A stretch of DNA of 14,590 bases from a virus (Duplodnaviria; Heunggongvirae; Uroviricota; Caudoviricetes). Position 1 is the first letter of the stretch, and each line of letters opens with the position of its first letter. Below the pieces are notes generated by a model. It had not been told where the DNA came from. It did no database searches and saw only the letters and a list, made by a program, of their open reading frames with translations. The DNA lies in IMG/VR virus record IMGVR_UViG_2563366895_000002, positions 1-14,590 of that record; one strand, written 5' to 3'. A program made the translations under genes and the position numbers. Below, piece by piece: positions 1 through 13,902 of this stretch.

Positions 1-1164
1 TTACGCCTTCTTTATATCCTCCATAATTCCAGAGTGGGACATATTTGGGACATTATCACCAAAAATGTCGTCTATTTTCCTCGCATGCTCTGTCAAATGA
101 TTAGGCGCAAGGTGAGCATACCTACGAACCATTTCTATGGACTCCCATCCGCCCATTTCCTGAAGCACTGATAATGGGACGCCTGACTGAATCAGCCAGC
201 TTGCCCAGGTGTGTCTGAGGTCATGGAAACGGAAATCTTCAATTCCTGCACGACGACAAGCTGATAGCCATGATGTCTTGCTGTCGATGCGCATCTTCCT
301 GACCGCAGGCGTTGATGTTCCATCTGCTCGCTTAGCCGCCTTGGTATGTACAAACACCCATTTGTGATGCTTGCCTATTTGATCACGCAACACTTTACAG
401 GCGGTATCGTTCAGCGCCACACCAATGGCGCGGTTTGATTTGCTCTCTTCTGGATTCACCCAGGCAACTCGTCGCTGCATGTCGATTTGTTGCCATTCCA
501 GATTTATGATGTTCGACTTTCTCAGACCAGTTGCCAGCGCAAACTTGACGACAGATTTCAGTGGTTCGGGGCACTCATCAATAAGGCGTTTTGCTTCCTC
601 CTTTTCCAGCCATCTGACTCGCTTGTTTCTGACCGCTGGTATCTTGATGACAGGCGCTTTTTCCAGCCACTTCCAGTCGCGTTCTGCAGCACGGAGAATG
701 GCCTTTATCATGGCAAGATGCTTTGCCTTTGTCTGAGTTGATACTGGCTTTGGTTCATAAACAGGCGGTTCTTTACCTTTCCTGATGGCGGCCTGAACTT
801 TCTGTTTCCATATTTCTTTCGTCTTTCTGTTATGCATTCTGCTTACAGCAGAGTAAATCTTTGCCTCCGAGATATCTTTAAGCCTTATACCCTCAAAATG
901 TTCAAGCCAGAACTCAATCCGGCTTTTATCTGAATCGAGAGATTTTTTATCAGCTTTTTCCTCAAGCCATCTTAGGCAGGCCTCTTCAAAAGTGACATCA
1001 GGTAAATCCCCTAGCTTTTCTACTCGCCAGAGTTCTGCTTTTCGCTTGTCGTGCAACTCCTGAGCTTGCCGCTTGTCCTTTGTGCCAAGAGATTCCTTAA
1101 TTCGTTTCCCGCCCGGGAGCGAATACGAGGCATACCATATTTCATTTCTGCGGAAGAGTGACAT
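1..1164 (-). CDS. intD: Phage tyrosine integrase (DLP12/P22-type), complete 387 aa
   Basis: Full-length ORF on the minus strand; stop codon at bases 1-3. C-terminal catalytic region shows the tyrosine-recombinase motifs ([10 protein letters not shown] ... VRRYAHL). Recognised from memory as the DLP12 integrase; the 3' end faces the window edge as expected for an int gene next to attL/tRNA. Confidence 0.9.
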
Positions 1165-1296
1165 TTTCTTTCCTCTGTTATGCCATCACCCGCGCTCACC
1201 TGGACAGTATGCAGCGGAGACTGAAGCGCCGCAATGCAGGCTTGCCGTGTTGTGAGGTAAGGAGATTTTGGCTTGGTTGGATCTTTACGTGTTGCC

Positions 1297-1470
1297 TGTA
1301 AAAGCCGCGAGGACAACGCTGTCGCAGTGTTGGCGGAACTGCTGACGCGTGCTTATCCTTGTCCGCCGCTGACACCACGTATACCAGCCGCTGCGGGCCA
1401 CCCGGAGCACGCGGCACATTGCTTTGATGCTGAACTCAGCCTGATGTTTTTCAATAAAGACATACTTCAT
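1297..1470 (-). pseudogene. insF: IS3 OrfB (InsF) N-terminal fragment, truncated after ~58 codons
   Basis: [58 protein letters not shown] matches the InsF N-terminus, then diverges and hits a stop; the DDE catalytic core is absent. Confidence 0.75.
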
Positions 1471-1766
1471 TTCAGGCGCTTCGCGAAGTATGTCGCGGCC
1501 TTTTGGAGGATAGCCAGCTCTTCATCCCGTTCTGCCAGCTGGCGTTTGAGACGTGCAATCTCGGTAGACATCTCCAGTTCACGTTCAGAAGACGTCTGCT
1601 GATTTTGCTGTTTACTGCGCCAGTTGTAGAGCTGTGATTCATACAGGCTGAGTTCACGGGCTGCGGCAGTAACACCGATGCGTTCAGCAAGCTTCAGGGC
1701 TTCACTGCGAAATTCAGGCGAATGCTGTTTACGGGGTTTTTTACTGGTTGATACTGTTTTTGTCAT
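1467..1766 (-). CDS. insE: IS3 OrfA transposase subunit (InsE), 99 aa
   Basis: Translation [40 protein letters not shown]... matches IS3 OrfA; ATG at 1766 (the track's 1775 start is an upstream GTG). Confidence 0.85.
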
Positions 1767-1831
1767 GTGAGTCACCTCTGACTGAGAGTTTACTCACTTA
1801 GCCGCGTGTCCACTATTGCTGGGTAAGATCA

Positions 1832-1994
1832 GCGAACGGTGTATTACCGGTTCGCTACCAGAGAAGAACGGGAAGGAAAGGTGAGCACGAATCTGATTTT
1901 TAAGGAGTGTCGCCAGAGTGCCGCGATGAAACGCGTATTGAGGGTATATAAAAGGAACATCAATGGGTACACAATGATGAAACAGGTGAGTTGA
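1832..1994 (+). pseudogene. renD: C-terminal remnant of Ren-like protein (renD'), separated from its 5' part by the IS3 insertion
   Basis: Frame starting at 1839 translates VYYRFATREEREGKVSTNLIFKECRQSAAMKRVL..., resembling the lambda Ren C-terminus from memory; it begins immediately at the IS3 end (1831) and stops at 1992-1994. Confidence 0.55.
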
Positions 1995-2044
1995 TTTCAA
2001 ACTGTAGTACAATTCTCTCCAGTTTGAACAGGAAAGAATATGCT

Positions 2045-2377
2045 ATGAACCCTTATATTTATCTTGGTGGTGCAATACTTGCAGAGGTCATTGGTACAAC
2101 CTTAATGAAGTTTTCAGAAGGTTTTACACGGTTATGGCCATCTGTTGGTACAATTATTTGTTATTGTGCATCATTCTGGTTATTAGCTCAGACGCTGGCT
2201 TATATTCCTACAGGGATTGCTTATGCTATCTGGTCAGGAGTCGGTATTGTCCTGATTAGCTTACTGTCATGGGGATTTTTCGGCCAACGGCTGGACCTGC
2301 CAGCCATTATAGGCATGATGTTGATTTGTGCCGGTGTGTTGGTTATTAATTTATTGTCACGAAGCACACCACATTAA
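2045..2377 (+). CDS. emrE: Small multidrug resistance (SMR) efflux transporter EmrE, 110 aa
   Basis: Translation MNPYIYLGGAILAEVIGTTLMKFSEGFTRLWPSVGTIICYCASFWLLAQTLAYIPTGIAYAIWSGVGIVLISLLSWGFFGQRLDLPAIIGMMLICAGVL.INLLSRSTPH matches EmrE from memory, including the conserved membrane-embedded Glu in the first helix (AILAEVIGT). ATG at 2045; the track's 1991 start is an upstream TTG. Confidence 0.95.
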   Translation: MNPYIYLGGAILAEVIGTTLMKFSEGFTRLWPSVGTIICYCASFWLLAQTLAYIPTGIAYAIWSGVGIVLISLLSWGFFGQRLDLPAIIGMMLICAGVLVINLLSRSTPH

Positions 2378-2408
2378 AAATAATTTGTTTCTAAACGACT
2401 AAAATATG

Positions 2409-2446
2409 GAGGCTCTTATATTTATATGAGCCTCGTTTTATGCTTT
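2409..2446 (+). terminator. Putative intrinsic terminator downstream of emrE
   Basis: GAGGCTC (2409-2415) pairs with GAGCCTC (2428-2434) around an AT-rich loop, followed by GTTTTATGCTTTTTG. Confidence 0.5.
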
Positions 2447-2633
2447 TTGTTAATGTCTTTATTTTTTTATGTATTCTTTTGTGCTTTCAAGATTATGGCG
2501 TAAGAAAATTGCAATACGATTATTGTTGTATATTCAAGATAATGTGACCTTAATTGTCTTTTTAAATAAAAATTAAACAAAAATTATATCTCACCACTAA
2601 GGTTTATAAAAGCATACGTTAGCAGGTGTCACC

Positions 2634-4160
2634 ATGAAAAAAGCCATAGCATATATGCGATTTTCATCACCAGGTCAGATGTCTGGCGACTCATTAAACC
2701 GACAGAGAAGACTTATTGCTGAATGGTTAAAGGTAAATAGTGATTATTATCTTGATACCATAACATATGAAGATTTAGGATTAAGTGCATTCAAAGGAAA
2801 GCATGCACAATCAGGAGCTTTTTCGGAATTTTTAGATGCTATAGAGCATGGTTATATATTGCCAGGAACTACATTGTTAGTTGAAAGTCTGGACAGACTT
2901 TCAAGAGAAAAAGTCGGTGAAGCGATTGAGCGTCTGAAATTGATTTTGAATCACGGTATTGATGTTATAACTCTTTGCGATAATACAGTCTATAATATTG
3001 ACTCTTTGAATGATCCATATTCATTAATAAAAGCCATACTTATAGCACAAAGGGCAAATGAAGAAAGCGAGATAAAGTCAAGTCGGGTTAAATTATCATG
3101 GAAGAAAAAACGGCAGGATGCACTGGAGTCAGGCACGATTATGACGGCGTCTTGTCCGAGATGGCTCTCCTTAGATGACAAAAGAACGGCTTTTGTTCCA
3201 GACCCCGACAGGGTGAAAACTATTGAGCTAATTTTTAAACTCAGGATGGAAAGGCGCTCATTGAATGCAATAGCCAAGTATTTAAATGATCATGCTGTAA
3301 AGAATTTCTCAGGAAAAGAAAGTGCATGGGGACCTTCTGTAATTGAAAAATTATTAGCGAATAAAGCTCTGATAGGTATATGCGTACCTTCATATCGTGC
3401 AAGAGGTAAAGGAATAAGTGAAATCGCTGGCTATTATCCCAGAGTCATATCAGATGATTTGTTTTACGCTGTGCAGGAAATTCGGTTGGCACCTTTTGGT
3501 ATTAGCAATAGTAGCAAAAACCCTATGTTGATAAATCTACTTCGAACAGTTATGAAGTGCGAGGCTTGTGGTAATACCATGATTGTTCATGCGGTATCTG
3601 GAAGTTTGCATGGCTATTATGTTTGTCCGATGAGAAGACTGCATCGATGTGACAGGCCATCAATAAAGAGAGATTTGGTTGATTATAATATCATTAATGA
3701 GTTGCTTTTTAATTGTAGTAAAATCCAACCAGTTGAAAACAAGAAAGATGCTAATGAAACTTTAGAGTTGAAAATTATTGAGCTCCAGATGAAAATTAAT
3801 AATTTAATTGCTGCATTATCTGTTGCGCCTGAAGTTACCGCTATAGCAGAAAAAATCAGAGTATTAGATAAGGAATTACGAAGGGCTTCTGTATCATTAA
3901 AAACTTTGAAGAGTAAAGCGGTGAGCTCACTTGGTGATTTTCATGCTATTGACTTAACCAGTAAAAATGGGCGAGAGCTATGTCGTACACTTGCCTATAA
4001 AACATTCGAAAAAATCATAATCAATACAGATAATAAAACCTGTGATATCTATTTTATGAATGGCATTGTTTTTAAACACTATCCTTTAATGAAAACAATA
4101 TCCGCCCAGCAGGCGATAAGTACTCTCAAATATATGGTTGATGGTGAGGTTTATTTTTGA
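2634..4160 (+). CDS. ybcK: Large serine recombinase (resolvase/invertase-type N-terminal domain), YbcK-like, 508 aa
   Basis: N-terminal YMRFSSPGQ motif with the presumptive catalytic Ser; a Cys-rich segment (CEACGN...CPMRRLHRC) typical of large serine recombinases. Matches DLP12 YbcK by length and sequence from memory. ATG at 2634 with AGGTG 6 nt upstream. Gene is visibly AT-rich. Confidence 0.85.
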   Translation: MKKAIAYMRFSSPGQMSGDSLNRQRRLIAEWLKVNSDYYLDTITYEDLGLSAFKGKHAQSGAFSEFLDAIEHGYILPGTTLLVESLDRLSREKVGEAIERLKLILNHGIDVITLCDNTVYNIDSLNDPYSLIKAILIAQRANEESEIKSSRVKLSWKKKRQDALESGTIMTASCPRWLSLDDKRTAFVPDPDRVKTIELIFKLRMERRSLNAIAKYLNDHAVKNFSGKESAWGPSVIEKLLANKALIGICVPSYRARGKGISEIAGYYPRVISDDLFYAVQEIRLAPFGISNSSKNPMLINLLRTVMKCEACGNTMIVHAVSGSLHGYYVCPMRRLHRCDRPSIKRDLVDYNIINELLFNCSKIQPVENKKDANETLELKIIELQMKINNLIAALSVAPEVTAIAEKIRVLDKELRRASVSLKTLKSKAVSSLGDFHAIDLTSKNGRELCRTLAYKTFEKIIINTDNKTCDIYFMNGIVFKHYPLMKTISAQQAISTLKYMVDGEVYF

Positions 4161-4271
4161 GTAATAATCACTTTTTCAACCGTGCTATAGTAAGAAAGTT
4201 AGGTAAGTACAATAAAATTATCTATCCTGAACGAAGCGTCCTGAGCTATGGTTTTACTATAGGGACTGCCA

Positions 4272-4589
4272 ATGGATGCTGGCGTTCTCGTTCTAGCAGT
4301 TCAACAATCCCCAATCACAAAACAATTCACTGATAACGAACTTTGCACACTCGCCTGGTTATGGCGAGCAGGGAATGTGATGTTAATTGCCTACCAGAAC
4401 GTTACTCATCTTCTTCAGGATGCGGAGCATGGTGAAGCTGGTCACTTCACTTCCATCGAGCAAGAATATCCCCAGATACTCAACAGAGCGCGAGCAATCC
4501 TCGTCCGAGAAACGGCACATGTAAAACTTCAGCCGTGGCAGGATGATAAGTGGAGTCGAGTATTGCCGTATTTGCGTCAAATCTGTTAG
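4272..4589 (+). CDS. Hypothetical protein, 105 aa, no family recognised
   Basis: ATG-initiated ORF with GC content near the host average, flanked by AT-rich DNA. No motif I can assign and no convincing Shine-Dalgarno seen; may be a gene remnant. Confidence 0.35.
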   Translation: MDAGVLVLAVQQSPITKQFTDNELCTLAWLWRAGNVMLIAYQNVTHLLQDAEHGEAGHFTSIEQEYPQILNRARAILVRETAHVKLQPWQDDKWSRVLPYLRQIC

Positions 4590-4686
4590 GAGTATAGCCG
4601 CCAGCCATGAGTGTTGTATTAAAACAAGGATGTCTATATATGGGATAGCGAGAGTATGAATATCAGTTATTTTGAGAGTTAACTGA

Positions 4687-4710
4687 TTGTGAAATTAGTT
4701 TTTTTCACAA
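4687..4710. promoter_or_regulatory. Inverted repeat TTGTGAAA-N8-TTTCACAA upstream of the 309-aa ORF; candidate operator
   Basis: Perfect 8-bp arms at 4687-4694 and 4703-4710 in an AT-rich intergenic region about 85 bp upstream of the ATG at 4794. Confidence 0.25.
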
Positions 4711-4793
4711 ACGAGTGGGGTTACTATGATGAGTGTTCTAATGCATAGGGAACACCTAATTTTTTCAATGAATTCAAATTGATAGGATCAAAA

Positions 4794-5723
4794 ATGGCAC
4801 AACAGAGAACTACCTCCCTCAGATCCATACCTTTAGACTTAGATGTTAAGCAAGAGGCTGTCATTAACGGTATAGAAATGGGGGTACTCGATAACGGAAT
4901 TCCGTACCTTACTCAGAATGGGTTGGCAAATGTTTGTGGTGTTCAGCGTTTGCGAATCAAGGAAATTACCGATGAGTGGGCTCAATCCGTTGAGAACGGT
5001 ATTTTCAAAAAAGGAAGAATGACTTTTATTGGTACATATCTTCTTAATGAAGGTTTTACAGATGAAAAACTTTATATACCAATAATTCGAAATGGTGTTG
5101 AGTACCATGCTTATCCAGATGTTGTATGCATGGCTATACTTGAATACTATGCCTTTGAAGCAAAACAAGCAGAAAGTGAGACTGCAATTAGATCTTACAG
5201 AGAGCTTGCTAAAAAAGGCCTCAAGACATTTATATACGAGGCGCTAAAATATCAACCGGAGGACCCGTGGAGGCATTACCATGACAGAGTATCTTTATTA
5301 AAAGATAAGGGAACCATACCTGATGGGTATTTCATTATATTTAATGAAATTGCAGGTATGATGGTAGATCTCATCAATGCTGGATTAGCGATTAATCAGC
5401 ATACCGTACCTGATGGCAGTGTTGGTTCTTGCTGGGCGCGTCACTGGAAAGCAAAGGGGTTAGCAACAGAATTTGGAGAAAGAGTAGACTGTGAGCATTA
5501 TTACCCTGAAGATTTTCTTCAGGCAAGTTCCAATCCTCAGATCATTAATGCCTATCCTGATTCTGCATTGTCAGAGTTTCGTAGATGGTTTAAGCATGAA
5601 TATTTAACCACAAAGTTCCCACCGTATATTCTTAAAAAATCAAACGTGCTTCCTGGTGGTACAGAAGATGCTAATCGTCTGATAGAAGCTTTCAAAAAAT
5701 CAGAGCTAGAAAATAAACCATAA
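4794..5723 (+). CDS. Hypothetical protein, 309 aa, unknown function; candidate prophage cargo or defence protein
   Basis: ATG at 4794 preceded by AGGA at 4784-4787 (the track's 4779 start is an upstream TTG). Long clean ORF, visibly AT-rich, no transmembrane or signal sequence evident. N-terminal segment (GIEMGVLDNGIPYLTQNGLANVCGVQRLRIKEITDEW) is loosely reminiscent of KilA-N/Bro-N DNA-binding domains; this is unverified. Confidence 0.6.
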   Translation: MAQQRTTSLRSIPLDLDVKQEAVINGIEMGVLDNGIPYLTQNGLANVCGVQRLRIKEITDEWAQSVENGIFKKGRMTFIGTYLLNEGFTDEKLYIPIIRNGVEYHAYPDVVCMAILEYYAFEAKQAESETAIRSYRELAKKGLKTFIYEALKYQPEDPWRHYHDRVSLLKDKGTIPDGYFIIFNEIAGMMVDLINAGLAINQHTVPDGSVGSCWARHWKAKGLATEFGERVDCEHYYPEDFLQASSNPQIINAYPDSALSEFRRWFKHEYLTTKFPPYILKKSNVLPGGTEDANRLIEAFKKSELENKP

Positions 5724-6828: not shown

Positions 6829-7187
6829 ATACCTACAGCATCACATTACCCTGGCCTCCGAGCAATAATCGCTATTACCGCCATAATCGCGGGCGCACGC
6901 ACATCAGCGCAGAAGGGCAGGCATACCGCGATAACGTCACCCGAATCATTAAAAACGCAATGCTGGATATCGGCCTGGCTATGCCAGTGAAAATCCGTAT
7001 TGAGTGCCACATGCCGGATCGCCGTCGCCGTGACCTGGATAATCTGCAAAAAGCCGCTTTTGACGCACTCACCAAAGCAGGTTTCTGGCTGGATGATGCT
7101 CAGGTCGTTGATTACCGCGTTGTGAAGATGCCTGTTACCAAAGGTGGGAGGCTGGAACTGACCATCACCGAAATGGGGAATGAATGA
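6825..7187 (+). CDS. rusA: RusA Holliday junction resolvase, 120 aa
   Basis: GTG at 6825 overlapping the ybcO stop (GTGA); translation [36 protein letters not shown]... matches RusA from memory. Confidence 0.9.
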
Positions 7188-7324
7188 TGTTTGAGTTTTA
7201 TATGGCAGAACTTCTTCGCCACCGCTGGGGGCATCTGCGCTTATATCGTTTCCCCGGTTCTGTTTTGACCGATTACCGAATACTGAAGAATTACGCCAAA
7301 ACCCTGACAGGAGCAGGAGTATGA
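7184..7324 (+). CDS. ylcG: YlcG-like small protein, 46 aa
   Basis: ATG overlapping the rusA stop; translation [46 protein letters not shown]. Confidence 0.6.
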
Positions 7325-7409
7325 AGTCAGAGATAACAATCAACTAATACTGTTTTGTTGATTTTTGCTTGTAATTGGCGTTCTGGTCTGATTTTTGTGG
7401 AGTAAGTTG

Positions 7410-7793
7410 ATGCGTGATATTCAGATGGTTCTTGAGCGTTGGGGAGCGTGGGCGGCTAATAATCATGAAGATGTGACCTGGTCGTCCATTGCCGCCGGTT
7501 TTAAGGGATTAATTACTTCAAAAGTAAAATCTCGCCCGCAATGTTGTGACGATGACGCGATGATTATTTGCGGGTGCATGGCCCGTCTGAAAAAGAACAA
7601 CAGCGATTTGCACGATTTATTAGTAGATTATTATGTAGTCGGTATGACATTCATGTCACTGGCAGGTAAGCATTGCTGCTCTGATGGTTATATCGGGAAA
7701 AGGTTACAGAAGGCTGAGGGCATAATTGAAGGGATGTTAATGGCATTAGATATCCGGTTAGAGATGGATATCGTTGTTAATAACTCTAATTAA
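7410..7793 (+). CDS. quuD: Late-gene antiterminator Q homolog (QuuD), 127 aa
   Basis: ATG at 7410 (the track's 7395 start is an upstream TTG); translation [24 protein letters not shown]... with the Cys cluster [12 protein letters not shown]; sits immediately upstream of the hairpin cluster and lysis genes. Confidence 0.85.
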
Positions 7794-7810
7794 TATGCCA
7801 ATTGTTTACT

Positions 7811-7844
7811 AAAAATTATTAAAAATGGGGCGTTGAGACGCCCC
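7811..7844 (-). terminator. GC-rich hairpin GGGGCG-TTGAGA-CGCCCC with U-tract on the minus strand
   Basis: Stem 7827-7832 / 7839-7844; the + strand upstream is AAAAATTATTAAAAAT, which reads as a T-tract after the hairpin on the minus strand. Could terminate nmpC transcription or be part of the late promoter region; strand assignment is uncertain. Confidence 0.4.
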
Positions 7845-7883
7845 CAAAAATAAAGGGTAATATATAACAGAAGGTTTATATAG

Positions 7884-7972
7884 TTAGAAGCAAGGTTGTG
7901 CTTCTAAAGGAAGTGGCTTGAGGGAGCCACTTATATGTTGGGGAGGCAACGCCTCCCGCAACATATCTTTTT
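7884..7972 (+). terminator. Three consecutive hairpins downstream of quuD, the last followed by CTTTTT (tR'-like intrinsic terminator)
   Basis: Hairpins at 7884-7907 (TTAGAAGCA/TGCTTCTAA), 7911-7932 (AAGTGGCT/AGCCACTT) and 7933-7966 (ATATGTTGGGGAGGC/GCCTCCCGCAACATAT), then T-run 7967-7972. Position between Q and the lysis genes fits a lambdoid late leader/terminator. Confidence 0.5.
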
Positions 7973-7982
7973 CGTAATCAGA

Positions 7983-9080
7983 TTAGAACTGGTAAACCAG
8001 ACCTACAGCAACGATGTCATCAGTGCTTACACCGAGTGCTTTAGTGAAGTCATTTTTGTCAAGCAGGTTGATTTTGTAATCAACGAAAGTAGACATATTT
8101 TTGTTGAAGTAATAGGTTGCACCTACATCAACATATTTGACTAAGTCCTGATCGCCCCATACTCCAAGATCTTTACCTTTAGATTGCAGGTAAGCAACGG
8201 ACGGACGCAGACCGAAATCGAACTGATATTGTGCAACAGCTTCGAAGTTTTGGGCTTTATTAGCAACGAAGTGATCAGCAAATACAGTCATATTCTGGGT
8301 TTCAGAATAGGTAGTGGCCAGGTAAATGTTGTTAGCGTCATATTTCAGACCTGCGGCCCAAACTTCTGCATTTTTACCGGAAGCAAATACTTCAGGAAGA
8401 ACTTTCCCTGCATTAACTTGAGTGTCGGTACGATCAGATTTCGCATAAGTTGCACCGATACCGAATCCTTCGTATTCATAGGTAGCAGAGAAACCGAAGC
8501 CATCACCGTTACCTTCAGTGTAGTTATCGAAATCGCTACGATCGTTTTTGCCTTGGTACTGAGCAGCAAAGTTCAGACCATCAACCAGACCAAAGAAGTC
8601 GTTGTTACGATAGGTTGCAACACCAGTGGTGCGACCAGTCATGAACACATCTGTTTGGGTCCAGGTATCGCCACCGAATTCTGGCAGAACGTCAGTCCAC
8701 GCACCGATGTCGTATGCTACACCGTAGTTACGGCCGTAATCGATTGAGCCGTAGTCACCGAATTTCAGGCCTGCAAATGCAAGACGGGTTTTGTCTTTGG
8801 AGGAACCTTGAGATTCAGCGCGGTTGCCTTTGAATTCATATTCCCACTGACCGAAACCAGTCAGTTGATCGTTGATTTGGGTTTCACCTTTGAAGCCAAG
8901 ACGGGCATAAGTAGTATCACCATCATCTGCATCATTAGAGGAGAAGTAGTGCTTGGCATTAACTTTCCCGTACAGATCCAGCTTGTTACTGTCTTTATTA
9001 TAAATTTCAGCTGCCTGAGCAGACATCGCCATCAGTACTGATGCAGCTACAGCAGAAATTGCCACTGTTAATTTTTTCAT
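7983..9080 (-). CDS. nmpC: Outer membrane porin NmpC (OmpC/OmpD family), intact 365 aa with signal peptide
   Basis: Translation begins [29 protein letters not shown] and ends with the porin C-terminal ...VAVGLVYQF; full length with no interruption. Confidence 0.9.
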
Positions 9081-9668
9081 CGTGAGCCCTTTTTTTTGAA
9101 CTATTATTAAAAAATGATGTCACTGCGCGATAAATATTCATCTAATCAATGTGATTATTTCAAGATGTAAGTTTTAGTTTCTCATTTAATTTGTGAAGTA
9201 GATCTCTATTTTTATCTGAACTTTTTCTATCGAAACCTATTTATGGCTCTTATTTGAACAAAAATAAACCTATTAGCTAATTTATATTAATGGTTGTTAT
9301 TTATGGAGGTTCTATAATTCGGCAGTTTAATTTAAATCAACTAAAAATAACGTCTGAAATTATTTATTGGTTATTTGTTGAGGTTTTCTTATGTATTTGT
9401 GGTGGTGTTTTGAACACTCGGTAGCATTCTCATAAATATCATTCAGTGGTTTACGTACGTAAAAAATTGGTTATGCTGTTAAGAGTGGTTACTTCGTCAC
9501 ACAGCTTAAACCCGCCGTCGAGCTGGTTTTTCCATTTTTTGAGTCTCGATATTAGCTGATAACTCAATACCTGAGTTATTCACTGACTCCGAGTCTGTTA
9601 CGTTTCTGCTTTTTTGCGATACGTTGTATTCCCTCAATTTACACCCGCTTTGTCTGCGAGGTGGGGTT

Positions 9669-9884
9669 ATGAAATCCATGGATAAGTTAACAACGGGTGT
9701 CGCCTATGGCACCTCAGCAGGTAGTGCCGGTTACTGGTTTTTACAGCTGCTCGATAAAGTCACGCCCTCACAGTGGGCAGCAATAGGTGTGCTGGGTAGC
9801 CTGGTATTTGGCCTGCTGACGTACCTGACAAACCTTTATTTCAAGATTAAAGAAGATAAGCGCAAGGCTGCGAGAGGTGAATAA
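9669..9884 (+). CDS. essD: Pinholin (phage 21 S-type), 71 aa, with MKSM dual-start motif
   Basis: Translation [71 protein letters not shown]; ATG at 9669 (the track's 9624 start is an upstream alternative); stop overlaps the rrrD start (TAATG). Confidence 0.8.
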
Positions 9885-10381
9885 TGCCTCCATCATTACG
9901 AAAAGCCGTTGCTGCTGCTATTGGTGGCGGAGCAATTGCTATAGCATCAGTGTTAATTACTGGCCCAAGTGGTAACGATGGTCTGGAAGGTGTCAGCTAC
10001 ATACCATACAAAGATATTGTTGGTGTATGGACTGTATGTCACGGGCATACAGGAAAAGACATCATGCTCGGTAAAACGTATACCAAAGCAGAATGCAAAG
10101 CCCTCCTGAATAAAGACCTTGCCACGGTCGCCAGACAAATTAACCCGTACATCAAAGTCGATATACCGGAAACAATGCGCGGCGCTCTTTACTCATTCGT
10201 TTACAACGTGGGTGCTGGCAATTTCAGAACATCGACGCTTCTTCGCAAAATAAACCAGGGCGATATCAAAGGCGCATGTGATCAGCTACGTCGCTGGACA
10301 TATGCTGGCGGTAAGCAATGGAAAGGTCTCATGACTCGTCGTGAGATTGAGCGTGAAATCTGTTTGTGGGGTCAGCAATGA
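9884..10381 (+). CDS. rrrD: SAR endolysin (lysozyme), 165 aa
   Basis: N-terminal Gly/Ala-rich signal-anchor-release segment ([20 protein letters not shown]) followed by a lysozyme domain; matches RrrD from memory. Confidence 0.9.
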
Positions 10382-10870: not shown

Positions 10871-11164
10871 TTATTGTGAGCAATACACACGCGCTTCCAG
10901 CGGAGTATAAATGCCTAAAGTAATAAAACCGAGCAATCCATTTACGAATGTTTGCTGGGTTTCTGTTTTAACAACATTTTCTGCGCCGCCACAAATTTTG
11001 GCTGCATCAACAGTTTTCTCCTGTCCAATTCCCGAAACGAAGAAGTGATGGGTGATGGTTTCCTTTGGTGTTACTGCTGTCGGTTTGTTTCCAACAGTAA
11101 ACGTCTGTTGAGCACATCCTGTAATAAGCATTGCCAGAGCGGCAGAAAACAACATTTTTTTCAT
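10871..11164 (-). CDS. borD: Bor lipoprotein homolog (serum-resistance-associated), 97 aa
   Basis: Translation MKKMLFSAALAMLITGC... with lipobox LITGC; ATG at 11164 (the track's 11212 start is an upstream alternative). Confidence 0.85.
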   Translation of the reverse strand: MKKMLFSAALAMLITGCAQQTFTVGNKPTAVTPKETITHHFFVSGIGQEKTVDAAKICGGAENVVKTETQQTFVNGLLGFITLGIYTPLEARVYCSQ

Positions 11165-12106: not shown

Positions 12107-13327
12107 ATGGAAGTCAACAAAAAGCAGCTGGCTGATATTTTCGGTGCGAGTATCCGTACCATTCAGAACTGGCAGGAGCAGGGAATGCCCGTTCTGCGAG
12201 GCGGTGGCAAGGGTAATGAGGTGCTTTATGATTCTGCCGCCGTCATAAAATGGTATGCCGAAACCATGCCACAGGCGAGTTCTGTTGTTTCAATTACGTT
12301 GATTGGTGGCGCTGGATTTAACGTGGGGTCACCTCAACAGGCAGGTATATCTGAACTTGTTTTACGTGCAGGTAATGGTAATCCGAAGGGGATTACTGGT
12401 GCTTTATGGCAGCGCACATCGACAGGGTTTACAAATTTTGCCTGGGTCAATACATCTGGTGATACTTACGATATTTACGTTGCAATCGGAAATTATGCGA
12501 CTGGTGTAAATATTCAATGGGATTATACCAGTAATGCCAGCGTGACGATTCATACGTCACCAGCATATTCTGCTAATAAGCCGGAAGGGTTAACGGACGG
12601 TACAGTTTATTCACTCTATACGCCATCAGAGCAGTTTTATCCGCCTGGCGCACCAATCCCGTGGCCATCAGATACCGTTCCGTCTGGCTATGCCCTGATG
12701 CAGGGGCAGACTTTTGACAAATCTGCATACCCGAAACTTGCAGCCGCTTATCCGTCAGGCGTGATCCCTGATATGCGTGGCTGGACGATTAAGGGCAAAC
12801 CTGCCAGTGGTCGGGCCGTATTGTCTCAGGAACAGGACGGCATTAAATCGCATACCCACAGCGCCAGCGCATCCAGTACGGATTTGGGGACGAAAACCAC
12901 ATCGTCGTTTGATTACGGCACTAAATCCACGAATAACACTGGTGCGCATACCCATAGTTTAAGTGGCAGCACGAATGCAGCTGGTAATCACAGCCATAGA
13001 GATGGCCGTCGATTTAACCCCAGTGTTTTTAAAGATACTTATCAATATGGTTATACAAGCTCAGGTCAAAATACCTGGGGTGTACAAGGCTCAGTAGGTA
13101 TGTCTACGGGGTGGTTAGCGAATACCAGTACAGATGGTAATCATAGCCATTCACTGTCCGGCACAGCAGCATCTGCAGGTGCACACGCGCATACTGTCGG
13201 TATTGGTGCTCATACGCACTCCGTTGCGATTGGTTCACATGGACACACCATCACCGTTAACGCTGCTGGTAACGCGGAAAACACCGTCAAAAACATCGCA
13301 TTTAACTATATTGTGAGGCTTGCATAA
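12107..13327 (+). CDS. Chimeric ORF: terminase small subunit Nu1 N-terminus (aa 1-~52, winged-helix DNA-binding part) fused in frame to a side tail fibre C-terminal region (~354 aa) with HxH repeats
   Basis: First 52 residues [52 protein letters not shown] match lambda Nu1; after about 12264 the sequence switches to tail-fibre-like sequence ([48 protein letters not shown]...) with six HxH motifs (GAHTHS, GNHSHR, GNHSHS, GAHAHT, GAHTHS, GSHGHT). Confidence 0.8.
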
Positions 13328-13902
13328 TGGCATTCAGAATGAGTGAACAACCACGGACCATAAAAATTTATAATCTGCTGGCCGGAACTAATGAATTTAT
13401 TGGTGAAGGTGACGCATATATTCCGCCTCATACAGGTCTGCCAGCAAACAGTACCGATATTGCACCACCAGATATTCCTGCTGGCTTTGTGGCTGTTTTC
13501 AACAGTGATAAGGCATCGTGGCATCTCGTTGAAGACCATCGGGGTAAAACGGTTTATGACGTAGCGTCAGGGGACGCGTTATTTATTTCTGAACTCGGTC
13601 CGTTACCGGAAAATGTTACCTGGTTATCGCCGGAAGGGGAGTTTCAGAAGTGGAACGGCACAGCCTGGGTGAAAGATGCAGAAGCAGAAAAACTGTTCCG
13701 GATCCGAGAGGCGGAAGAAACAAAAAACAGCCTGATGCAGGTAGCCAGTGAGCATATTGCGCCACTTCAGGATGCTGTAGATCTGGAAATCGCAACGGAG
13801 GAAGAAACCTCATTGCTGGAAGCCTGGAAAAAGTATCGGGTGTTGCTGAACCGTGTTGATACGTCAACTGCACAGGATATTGAATGGCCAGCACTGCCGT
13901 AG
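13327..13902 (+). CDS. tfaR: Tail fibre assembly protein (Tfa; TfaR/TfaQ-like), 191 aa
   Basis: ATG overlaps the stop of the upstream fibre ORF (TAATG); translation [54 protein letters not shown]... matches Rac/Qin-type Tfa from memory. Confidence 0.9.

Follow-up and report, generated by a model that had tools for sequence, protein, structure and literature searches.

The DNA analysed here (the window, 14,590 nucleotides in its whole length) is, by its sequence, a DLP12-type defective lambdoid prophage at argU. Compared with strain WL164 it gives a 99.9% match over the whole length, with tRNA-Arg (argU) directly outside intD, and the DLP12-type gene order intD ... ybcK ... rusA-ylcG-quuD-nmpC-essD-rrrD-rzpD beside argU is the same as that of MG1655. 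The porin gene nmpC (also named lc) is opposite in strand to the antiterminator gene quuD on one side and to essD and rrrD on the other (Table 1). The antisense orientation described in a first-pass annotation of this DNA thus stands, but what was there called the late operon is merely the lysis cassette of a defective prophage.

Table 1. Features at and around nmpC, numbered from the first nucleotide of the window.
Feature	Position	Strand	Details and basis
quuD	7410-7793	+	Q-type antiterminator, 127 aa; Pfam Phage_antitermQ (PF06530), E 3.5e-53; RefSeq annotation
Porin cassette	7743-9448		Last ~17 quuD codons, 3' UTR/terminators, nmpC, nmpC promoter region; absent between Q and pR' in 933W
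nmpC 3' UTR, probable IpeX sRNA	7816-7982	-	162-167 nt, four hairpins; fold, position, length
Intrinsic-terminator-like hairpin	7932-7971	+	ATATGTTGGGGAGGC-AAC-GCCTCCCGCAACATAT then CTTTTT; RNA fold
nmpC (= lc)	7983-9080	-	General porin CDS; ATG-to-stop ORF, 365 aa
nmpC signal peptide	9080-9012	-	
nmpC mature protein	9011-7986	-	
nmpC stop codon	7985-7983	-	
SigmaE-like motif	9098-9124	+	GAACTA, 16 nt, TCACT; back to back with PnmpC; start would be near 9129-9131
Probable PnmpC	9126-9163	-	-35 TTGAAA 9163-9158, 18-nt spacer, -10 GAATAT 9139-9134, start G 9128 or 9126
CRP-binding site	9189-9209		About 70 bp upstream of inferred nmpC start; J02580 misc_binding, locus positions 1434-1454
Stx-phage pR' homologue	9450-9477	+	-35 TTTACG 9450-9455, 16-nt spacer, -10 TATGCT 9472-9477
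Conserved initially transcribed block	9480-9531	+	TAAGAGTGGTTAC, hairpin GTGGTTACTTCGTCAC (qut in 933W), terminator-like hairpin and TTTTT
essD	9669-9884	+	S21-type holin, first lysis-cassette gene; Pfam Phage_holin_2_1, E 2e-35; annotation
rrrD	9884-10381	+	Endolysin; Pfam Phage_lysozyme, E 1.3e-45; annotation

The 365-codon nmpC reading frame encodes a complete porin. Pfam Porin_1 spans the product end to end (profile positions 1-337 of 337, E 1e-156, 522 bits against a cut-off of 23.7), and residue 24 to the last residue align with solved OmpC, OmpK36, PhoE and OmpF chains at E about 1e-135, although no NmpC chain was present among the listed PDB matches. The signal peptide was assigned from two sources: the sig_peptide annotation of the PA-2 lc record J02580 (98% identical), which covers the first 23 residues, and the start of the porin structure alignment, since the mature sequence AEIYNKD begins at query residue 24 in the alignment to the solved OmpC chains. 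The loop-3 constriction motif PEFGG is found at residue 133 and the C-terminus (...GLVYQF) ends with an aromatic Phe, as for outer-membrane assembly. With its full-length profile match, signal peptide, PEFGG motif and C-terminal Phe, NmpC is classed by sequence as a general bacterial porin of the OmpC/OmpF/PhoE type, and the earlier description of a full-length gene with a signal peptide and a terminal aromatic residue is borne out. The product would be a 16-strand trimeric porin of the OmpC/OmpF class, and by analogy with the literature on other strains probably acts as a trimeric diffusion channel in the outer membrane.

The intact gene in the window is an ordinary and already known prophage porin gene, the Lc porin of phage PA-2; in the literature nmpC has also been named as the E. 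coli counterpart of Salmonella ompD. The K-12 copy was described in the first-pass annotation as disrupted by IS5, and it is indeed split by IS5B, leaving a 58-nt 3' fragment. Because full-gene coverage cannot tell K-12-type copies apart, intact copies were counted with a 138-nt query spanning the IS5 site. The uninterrupted allele proved common: of 5,426 complete E. coli genomes, at least 770 carry it. Among phage records, 36 (PA-2 lc included) have an intact porin, with Q, the antisense porin, S and R in the order seen here.

Comparison with the Stx phage 933W delimits the DNA that accompanies the porin gene. Two collinear blastn matches, 7408-7742 to Q and 9449-9531 to pR'/qut, are separated by 1706 nt here as against 88 nt in 933W, and the boundaries are sharp, with homology stopping at 7742 and restarting at 9449. 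The intervening cassette is 39.6% GC overall, and its quuD-nmpC spacer (7794-7982, 189 bp) occurs only with the porin gene, in 35-36 phage records. Candidate signals of the kind expected for a moron are a promoter published for the K-12 copy, whose motif was located here, and a terminator predicted at 7844-7827 on the minus strand, followed by a T-run. On these grounds nmpC/lc may be viewed as a self-contained lysogenic-conversion cassette with its own predicted promoter and terminator.

Proposed transcription of nmpC and its 3' untranslated region

The gap between nmpC and essD is 588 bp long, in agreement with the AT-rich leader of about 590 bp proposed at first, but it is strongly AT-rich only in its left part (27% GC in 9081-9448 compared with 42% in 9449-9668), and that part is mostly the nmpC promoter and CRP region. 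In published work the 199 bp preceding the nmpC ATG contain a sigma70 promoter whose 5'-RACE start is a G; CRP is reported to activate it, and OmpR, IHF and MprA to repress it. The exact PnmpC hexamers given in Table 1 were located by a motif script and are inferred positions. When 7300-9900 was scanned in a simple way for sigma70 sites, neither intergenic region gave one; the scan missed both PnmpC and the pR' homologue described below because their hexamers fall under its 9-of-12 rule. In the scheme we propose, nmpC would be read leftward from its own sigma70 promoter, inside the 370 bp of AT-rich DNA on its right, and its transcript would end at the terminator just past the quuD stop codon.

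The 3' untranslated region of this predicted transcript is highly structured (-63.4 kcal/mol, z = -9.3 for the minus strand). IpeX is a published 167-nt sRNA of DLP12; it arises by processing of a porin transcript that starts at the porin promoter, and it represses OmpC and OmpF. The segment at 7816-7982 is probably IpeX: it measures 162-167 nt from stop codon to T-run, it is structured, and it is identical to the K-12 sequence. Rfam searches, run at gathering thresholds over the entire window and at E <= 1 over 7700-9700, found neither IpeX nor a pR' short RNA, so that the assignment rests on position and length, no Rfam family having matched the region. Their only hits were to IS009, in another part of the DNA, and to a snoRNA, by chance.

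On the plus strand the same spacer also folds stably (-47.2 kcal/mol, z = -5.8 for 7860-7985), with CUUUUU right after the last hairpin. This hairpin (7932-7971), a putative terminator, probably ends transcripts leaving quuD before they reach nmpC, and would thereby protect the porin gene from unmodified transcription. N-modified early transcription from pR in intact phages would still pass through quuD and across nmpC. The quuD and nmpC/IpeX transcripts are convergent, and if both predicted terminators work they overlap by about 150 nt (7816-7971), which would make the 3' end of the quuD mRNA fully complementary to IpeX.

An extra porin with consequences for permeability, as first suggested for this strain, is plausible and has been documented in other strains. 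Published work shows that wild strains express NmpC and that beta-lactams enter through it. Excision of an IS element from nmpC turns on its mRNA and alters cefotaxime susceptibility, NmpC protein has been identified in outer-membrane profiles of AIEC, nmpC mRNA and protein both go up at 37 C in CFT073, and in AW1.7 NmpC is highly expressed and contributes to heat resistance. In K-12 itself, PnmpC activity suffices for the sole detectable IS5 transposase fusion transcript. These reports weigh against the possibility that nmpC is intact yet silent in the strain from which the window comes, as reported for E. coli B, with no additional porin arriving in the outer membrane under ordinary conditions and the sRNA perhaps the only active product of the locus, a possibility that we regard as doubtful but not negligible. 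Some features of the locus do favour it. H-NS typically silences AT-rich DNA, and by analogy the nmpC promoter region, at 27% GC, may be a target of that type. The promoter is also subject to the three repressors named above, and the title of Prilipov et al. (1998) refers to 'two quiescent porin genes' in E. coli B, of which nmpC is one. The preferred reading is a porin gene that would be transcribed from its own promoter in the window's own strain.

A pR' homologue between nmpC and the lysis genes

The first-pass annotation held that Q-dependent late transcription must enter from the quuD side and cross about 1.1 kb of antisense nmpC and the 590-bp leader before reaching the lysis genes. The position of the only promoter homologue of the Q933W/QuuD type in the window, at 9450-9477 and so to the right of nmpC, speaks against this. 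By blastn, window 9449-9531, 185 nt upstream of essD, matches 933W 20665-20746, annotated as pR'/qut/terminator, with 76% identity over 83 nt and E values of 7e-7 to 2e-13 against 2.3 Gb of phage DNA (2.5e-11 pairwise). Alignments, among them one of the window, K-12, 933W, PhiR49_2 and SfIV, show that the -35, the spacer, the -10 and roughly 50 nt of the transcribed region are kept, and the promoter core GTTTAC-N3-CGTAAAAA-N6-TAT is common to the window, 933W and Lambda_2E9. This conserved core and transcribed block occurs once in the window, at 9450-9531. The Stx late start (pR') has been mapped by dRNA-seq, 258 nt upstream of tR'; in our own coordinate mapping it lands just past the -10, and the corresponding start in the window is predicted near 9484. 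In the literature the DNA upstream of essD is regarded as the lysis-operon promoter region, under the control of Q and RpoE, and a Q-type antiterminator is among the regulators cited for this DLP12 operon.

Over residues 1-120 QuuD shares 78% identity with Q of 933W and then diverges; it also matches Q21 structures distantly. Recognition of the pR' homologue by QuuD is putative, because the qut hairpin differs from that of 933W at several bases and the C-terminal tail of QuuD is unlike that of Q933W. Furthermore, the homologue does not adjoin the 3' end of Q but lies 1,656 bp past the quuD stop, with the porin cassette between. Adjacency of the promoter to the Q gene is usual, yet is not needed for a diffusible factor, and QuuD, being diffusible, could act on pR' from 1.7 kb away. 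SfIV likewise has antisense genes between Q and the same conserved block; no Pfam family was found for these two genes. Lambda_2E9, which has a closer Q relative and no porin, has the promoter core far downstream of Q, although the transcribed block is not shared; directly after its Q come a terminator and a sequence resembling a promoter, with blc next in antisense orientation. This phage supports the pR' assignment yet shows that layouts vary, so arrangements in which transcription could cross an antisense cassette may exist.

Given the pR'/qut homologue to the right of nmpC, late transcription most likely starts there and need not cross nmpC. The porin cassette would then lie between quuD and the Q target, 185 nt upstream of essD; Q-modified transcription would begin beyond the porin gene and head away from it, leaving porin and lysis-gene expression largely insulated, with no forced head-on interference. 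The transcriptional interference between porin and lysis functions proposed earlier is accordingly not what this arrangement suggests. The reading as a whole (an intact moron with its own PnmpC, an IpeX 3' UTR, pR' to the right of nmpC and insulation of the two functions) we consider probable; what was observed directly is the reading frame with its family assignment, the IS5 difference from K-12, where the pR' block lies and what it is homologous to, and the hairpins predicted by folding.

Two other positions for the lysis promoter were weighed. The first, which we judge improbable, is that the lysis cassette is expressed mainly from a sigmaE-dependent promoter abutting the nmpC start codon, with its start near 9129 on the plus strand, that QuuD acts on transcripts from it, and that 9450-9531 is a mere leader and terminator. 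The sigmaE-like motif GAACTA-16-TCACT at 9098-9124 would suit it, and both RpoE and a Q-type antiterminator have been cited as regulators of the operon. Pasqua 2021 describes cloning of the regulatory region of the lysis operon from '-121 to +650', after Rueggeberg 2015; the primers map to 9008 and 9789, which indirectly puts the +1 of that numbering near 9129 rather than 9484. However, the -35, spacer and -10 at 9450-9477 align base for base with those of Stx pR', where the start has been mapped. Known Q proteins (lambda, 82 and 21) engage polymerase at a specific promoter-proximal site, and QuuD is a distant relative of Q21. A sigmaE promoter may also coexist with pR', and because both can coexist it would be an addition more than a replacement.

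The second, that pR'/qut lies in the 189-bp spacer just after quuD and that Q-modified polymerase crosses nmpC and the 588-bp gap with head-on collisions, is very unlikely: pR' does directly follow Q in lambda and Stx phages, Lambda_2E9 has its promoter-like sequence and terminator next to Q with antisense blc after, and within the spacer TTGAGA (7833-7838) and TAATAT (7858-7863) weakly resemble a promoter, with hairpins after them and a plus-strand terminator that could be read as tR', but the hexamers are 19 nt apart, a consensus scan found no sigma70-like plus-strand site in 7794-7982, the spacer has no homology to the Q-adjacent regions of porin-less phages, the conserved core and transcribed block lies instead at 9450-9531, and the minus strand of the spacer is explained as the nmpC 3' UTR/IpeX. 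A reading of the spacer as pR'/tR', based on this same pair and the hairpins, was dropped in view of the 933W homology on the other side of nmpC. That it is found only with the porin gene, and that its plus strand ends in a predicted terminator hairpin before nmpC, likewise counts against a late start on the quuD side.

In the hairpin at 9511-9526 the window and PA-2 have GCTGG at 9522-9526 in place of GCGGG, and the calculated hairpin energy is -5.4 kcal/mol for the window allele against -11.6 kcal/mol for that of K-12. It is a long shot, in our estimation, that duplex formation and RNase III cleavage couple Q output to that of the porin and sRNA and, separately, that the GCTGG allele makes the lysis genes leakier than in K-12; were this so, cleavage of the quuD mRNA/IpeX duplex by RNase III might account for the reported processing of IpeX.

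Implications and comparison with known systems

An intact nmpC provides the strain with a third general porin gene. NmpC has been linked in published work to beta-lactam entry, heat resistance and temperature-dependent remodelling of the envelope, and a 3' UTR sRNA that lowers OmpC and OmpF bears on permeability and on phages with OmpC as receptor. As these effects were established in other strains, the window is a further instance and not a discovery. There is also a lesson for annotation, in that the porin cassette of this phage lineage separates Q from its probable target promoter; neither that pR' abuts Q nor that all DNA from Q to S belongs to the late operon should be assumed.

The closest known system is DLP12 of K-12, whose nmpC (b0553) occupies the same locus, argU-intD ... 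rusA-ylcG-quuD-nmpC-essD-rrrD-rzpD. QuuD is identical in the two, as is the quuD-nmpC spacer (189/189), and with IS5 removed the K-12 gene has the same backbone (98.1% DNA identity, 2 aa differences). In K-12, IS5B is inserted 58 nt ahead of the stop codon with a 4-bp duplication of its target, so that the gene there is a pseudogene, whereas the window copy has no insertion. The K-12 hairpin at 9511-9526 has the stronger GCGGG allele, and the neighbouring cargo differs in that the window has no ybcL/ybcM. For IpeX, the published 167 nt from the porin transcript agree with the 162-167 nt structured 3' UTR described here, but in K-12 IS5 parts the promoter and most of nmpC from the IpeX region, while in the window the transcript would be continuous.

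PA-2 lc (J02580) shares 98% DNA identity with the window over 2.1 kb, with 2 aa differences, and has the same antisense placement upstream of the lysis genes, annotated signal peptide, CRP sites and GCTGG hairpin allele; PA-2, however, is a viable phage, whereas the window lacks head and tail genes and represents a defective remnant. With OmpC, OmpF, PhoE and OmpK36 the product shares a full-length alignment (to solved OmpC and OmpK36), the PEFGG motif and the C-terminal Phe. Unlike these host porins it is prophage-borne and not a core gene, its regulation involves CRP, and its 3' UTR sRNA targets host porins.

The Stx phages (933W, Sp5 of Sakai; the source of the StxS sRNA) have a Q of the same Pfam family, 78% identical, and a conserved -35/spacer/-10 with some 50 nt of transcribed sequence that includes the qut-annotated hairpin and a hairpin with T-run. 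In those phages the end of Q and the promoter overlap, and transcription covers 258 nt as far as tR', with the tRNA and stx genes beyond it, while in the window 1.7 kb separate the promoter from Q and 185 nt separate it from the holin gene. The 933W similarity stops after the first hairpin, and the cargo in the window has been inserted upstream of pR', not downstream.

An intact porin gene in a DLP12-type prophage

The window is a defective lambdoid prophage of the DLP12 type. All 14.6 kb of it align with E. coli strain WL164 at 99.9%, and in the WL164 genome intD adjoins the tRNA-Arg gene argU. The genes are, in order, intD, an IS3 remnant, emrE, ybcK, ybcN, ninE, ybcO, rusA, ylcG and quuD, and these are followed by the porin gene, essD, rrrD, rzpD, iss/bor, ylcI, a truncated nohD, tail-fibre remnants and an invertase. 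The lysis cassette is the only survivor of the late genes; no head or tail genes are present in the window, and neither N nor pR. MG1655 has the same backbone, but its DLP12 locus (L003) encodes ybcL and ybcM at 6894-8252 where window positions 4272-5723 encode a P22AR C-terminal-domain protein and a 309-residue hypothetical protein, and the full IS3 copy, ybcV and ybcW of K-12 are missing from the window. The cargo of DLP12-type remnants varies from strain to strain. Besides nmpC, one more conversion gene is antisense: iss/bor (10871-11164, minus strand; increased serum survival lipoprotein), downstream of the lysis cassette and directly after rzpD. A full-length Rfam match to IS009 (RF02111; 13670-13868, plus strand; 226.7 bits, the gathering score being 117) sits within the tail-fibre assembly gene at 13327-13902.

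The first-pass annotation described nmpC as full length, with a signal peptide and a terminal aromatic residue, and gave the K-12 copy as disrupted by IS5. Both statements are borne out. The 365-codon product matches the whole Pfam Porin_1 profile (positions 1-337 of 337, E 1e-156) and, from residue 24 through to the C-terminal one, aligns with the solved chains of OmpC, OmpK36, PhoE and OmpF (E about 1e-135). Residues 1-23 are the signal peptide as annotated in the PA-2 lc record, the loop-3 motif PEFGG is found at residue 133, and the C-terminus is VYQF. IS5B interrupts the MG1655 gene and leaves a 3' fragment of 58 nt; minus IS5 and the 4-bp duplication, the K-12 gene is 98.1% identical to the window copy, with two residue differences (Q149G and A151T). 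PA-2 Lc likewise differs from the window NmpC at two residues. As prophage porins go, the window gene is ordinary and well described. A 69-codon ORF antisense to the nmpC 3' end (7935-8144, plus strand) is probably no real gene; the 1986 PA-2 record names it "ORF1", and the record of phage 434 isolate 434B lists it as a hypothetical protein and gives it an RBS.

Published work treats nmpC as equivalent in E. coli to Salmonella ompD, with the K-12 copy silenced by an insertion element. In K-12 the nmpC sigma70 promoter is active, with a start at a G by 5'-RACE; CRP activates it, and OmpR, IHF and MprA repress it. NmpC protein has been detected in outer-membrane profiles of AIEC strains, nmpC mRNA and protein go up at 37 °C in CFT073, and the heat resistance of strain AW1.7 is partly due to NmpC; in an evolution experiment, IS excision from nmpC switched on its mRNA and increased cefotaxime entry. 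An intact nmpC is nevertheless no proof of expression, because the gene of E. coli B is termed quiescent in the title of Prilipov et al. (1998).

Position of the late promoter

We consider it quite probable that Q and the late promoter pR' are separated by the porin cassette (about 7743-9448), and that late transcription starts 185 nt upstream of essD, near position 9484, directed away from nmpC. When the nmpC-essD gap served as query in a sensitive search, positions 9449-9531 matched hundreds of Stx phages directly 3' of their Q gene, with identities of up to 94% to PhiR49_2 and 90% to phiP27, and the matched bases of 933W carry the annotations pR' (20666-20693), qut and terminator. Conserved in the alignment are a -35 element TTTACG, a 16-nt spacer, a TATNNT -10 element and ~50 nt of transcribed sequence containing the hairpin GTGGTTAC...CAC and a hairpin with a T-run. 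The motif TAAGAGTGGTTAC occurs once in the window. Sy et al. (2020) mapped the pR' start of Stx phages by dRNA-seq and the transcript 3' end at the terminator tR' by Term-seq, and the start lies 258 nt upstream of that end; on the Sakai sequence this distance places the start 5-7 nt past the -10 TATCAT of the promoter homologous to 9449-9531.

Over residues 1-120, QuuD shares 78% identity with Q of 933W, and the window and 933W are collinear, 7408-7742 matching the Q gene and 9449-9531 the pR' region, with 1,706 nt between these matches in the window as against 88 nt in 933W. Homology to Q of porin-less phages ends within quuD, at nt 333-360 of 384 (7743-7793); the cassette boundary therefore falls within the ORF, and the last 7-17 QuuD codons are part of the inserted segment. 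The 189-bp quuD-nmpC spacer has a fold of four hairpins, with CUUUUU after the last one. This fold made it a candidate site for the late promoter, which was rejected on the phage comparison; the spacer is confined to phages carrying the porin.

The earlier proposal that late transcription enters from the quuD side and crosses nmpC antisense is not upheld, as the pR' homologue lies to the right of nmpC. The proposed transcriptional interference between porin and lysis genes depends on that misplaced promoter, and a head-on conflict with Q-modified late transcription is not expected. Terminator read-through out of quuD could still produce antisense transcription over nmpC, and in intact phages of the same type N-modified early transcription could be another source.

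Regions flanking nmpC

Features of the porin region (window positions)
Feature	Position	Strand	Basis or remark
Terminator of nmpC transcript, predicted	stem 7844-7827, then T-run	-	
Terminator hairpin + CTTTTT, predicted	7932-7965 (hairpin)	+	fold; would stop transcripts out of quuD
nmpC porin ORF	7983-9080	-	ATG to stop, 365 codons
SigmaE-like motif	9098-9124	+	sequence motif
Probable nmpC promoter	-35 TTGAAA 9163-9158; -10 GAATAT 9139-9134; start G 9128 or 9126	-	motif, guided by published promoter
CRP site	9189-9209		annotated in J02580 (PA-2 lc)

On the minus strand, the 162-167 nt from the nmpC stop codon to the terminator have a very stable predicted fold (z = -9.3). This fits IpeX, a 167-nt DLP12 sRNA described as part of the porin transcript and targeting ompC and ompF; Rfam gave no family match in the nmpC 3' region. 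quuD and nmpC/IpeX are transcribed towards each other, and with their 3' ends as predicted the two transcripts would share ~150 nt (7816-7971), so that the quuD 3' UTR would be fully antisense to IpeX, a possible point of cross-talk.

On the other side of nmpC, GC content is 27% in 9081-9448 and 42% in 9449-9668; the probable nmpC promoter, the CRP site and the sigmaE-like motif all fall in the AT-rich part. The regulatory region of the lysis operon that Pasqua et al. (2021) cloned, after Rueggeberg (2015), is given as "-121 to +650", and their primers map at 9008 and 9789, which puts their +1 near 9129. This position and the sigmaE-like motif fit the published control of the lysis cassette by RpoE; a sigmaE-type promoter and pR' can exist side by side. 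Just past the pR' homologue, a hairpin with a T-run (9511-9531) reads GCTGG (T9524) in the window, PA-2, D5 and WL164, and GCGGG in K-12, 434B (IS5-interrupted nmpC allele), PhiR49_2, SfIV and 933W. From GCGGG to GCTGG the predicted energy changes from -11.6 to -5.4 kcal/mol, although an alternative stem CAGCTT...GAGCTG forms; the GCTGG allele might change Q-independent read-through into the lysis genes.

Distribution and comparison with related phages

The quuD-porin-essD-rrrD segment is at least 80% covered in 2,317 of 5,426 complete E. coli genomes, a count that takes in IS-interrupted copies. With a 138-nt query spanning the K-12 IS5 site, at least 770 of the 5,426 give an unbroken match, and K-12 derivatives give split ones. 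The order Q, antisense porin, S, R is found in 36 phage records, including PA-2 and the laboratory isolate 434B (OL657227), in which positions 1503-5094 hold quuD, an nmpC that IS5 interrupts behind codon 346, just as in K-12, and the first part of the holin gene. Its depositors marked this stretch as non-homologous to 434, with the crossover point in ylcG, and it looks as if the segment was gained through recombination with DLP12 in K-12.

The window differs from 933W in its qut hairpin and in the C-terminus of QuuD, 933W Q being ~17 residues longer past the conserved part. Cargo between Q and a conserved late promoter or leader is also seen in other phages with a related Q. SfIV keeps the transcribed block immediately ahead of the holin gene, 2.5 kb past its Q; the interval holds an IS element with a transposase and two antisense ORFs that had no Pfam match (L008, the SfIV sequence, 950-3510). 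In Lambda_2E9, whose Q is 88% identical to quuD at the DNA level, a terminator resembling Stx tR' directly follows Q, and hence other layouts exist; a Blc lipocalin gene in antisense and a YbgA-like gene in forward orientation (L012, the Lambda_2E9 sequence, 405-2280) separate Q from the late promoter, and the promoter core GTTTAC-N3-CGTAAAAA-N6-TAT is kept ~1.9 kb downstream of Q, upstream of the lysis genes.
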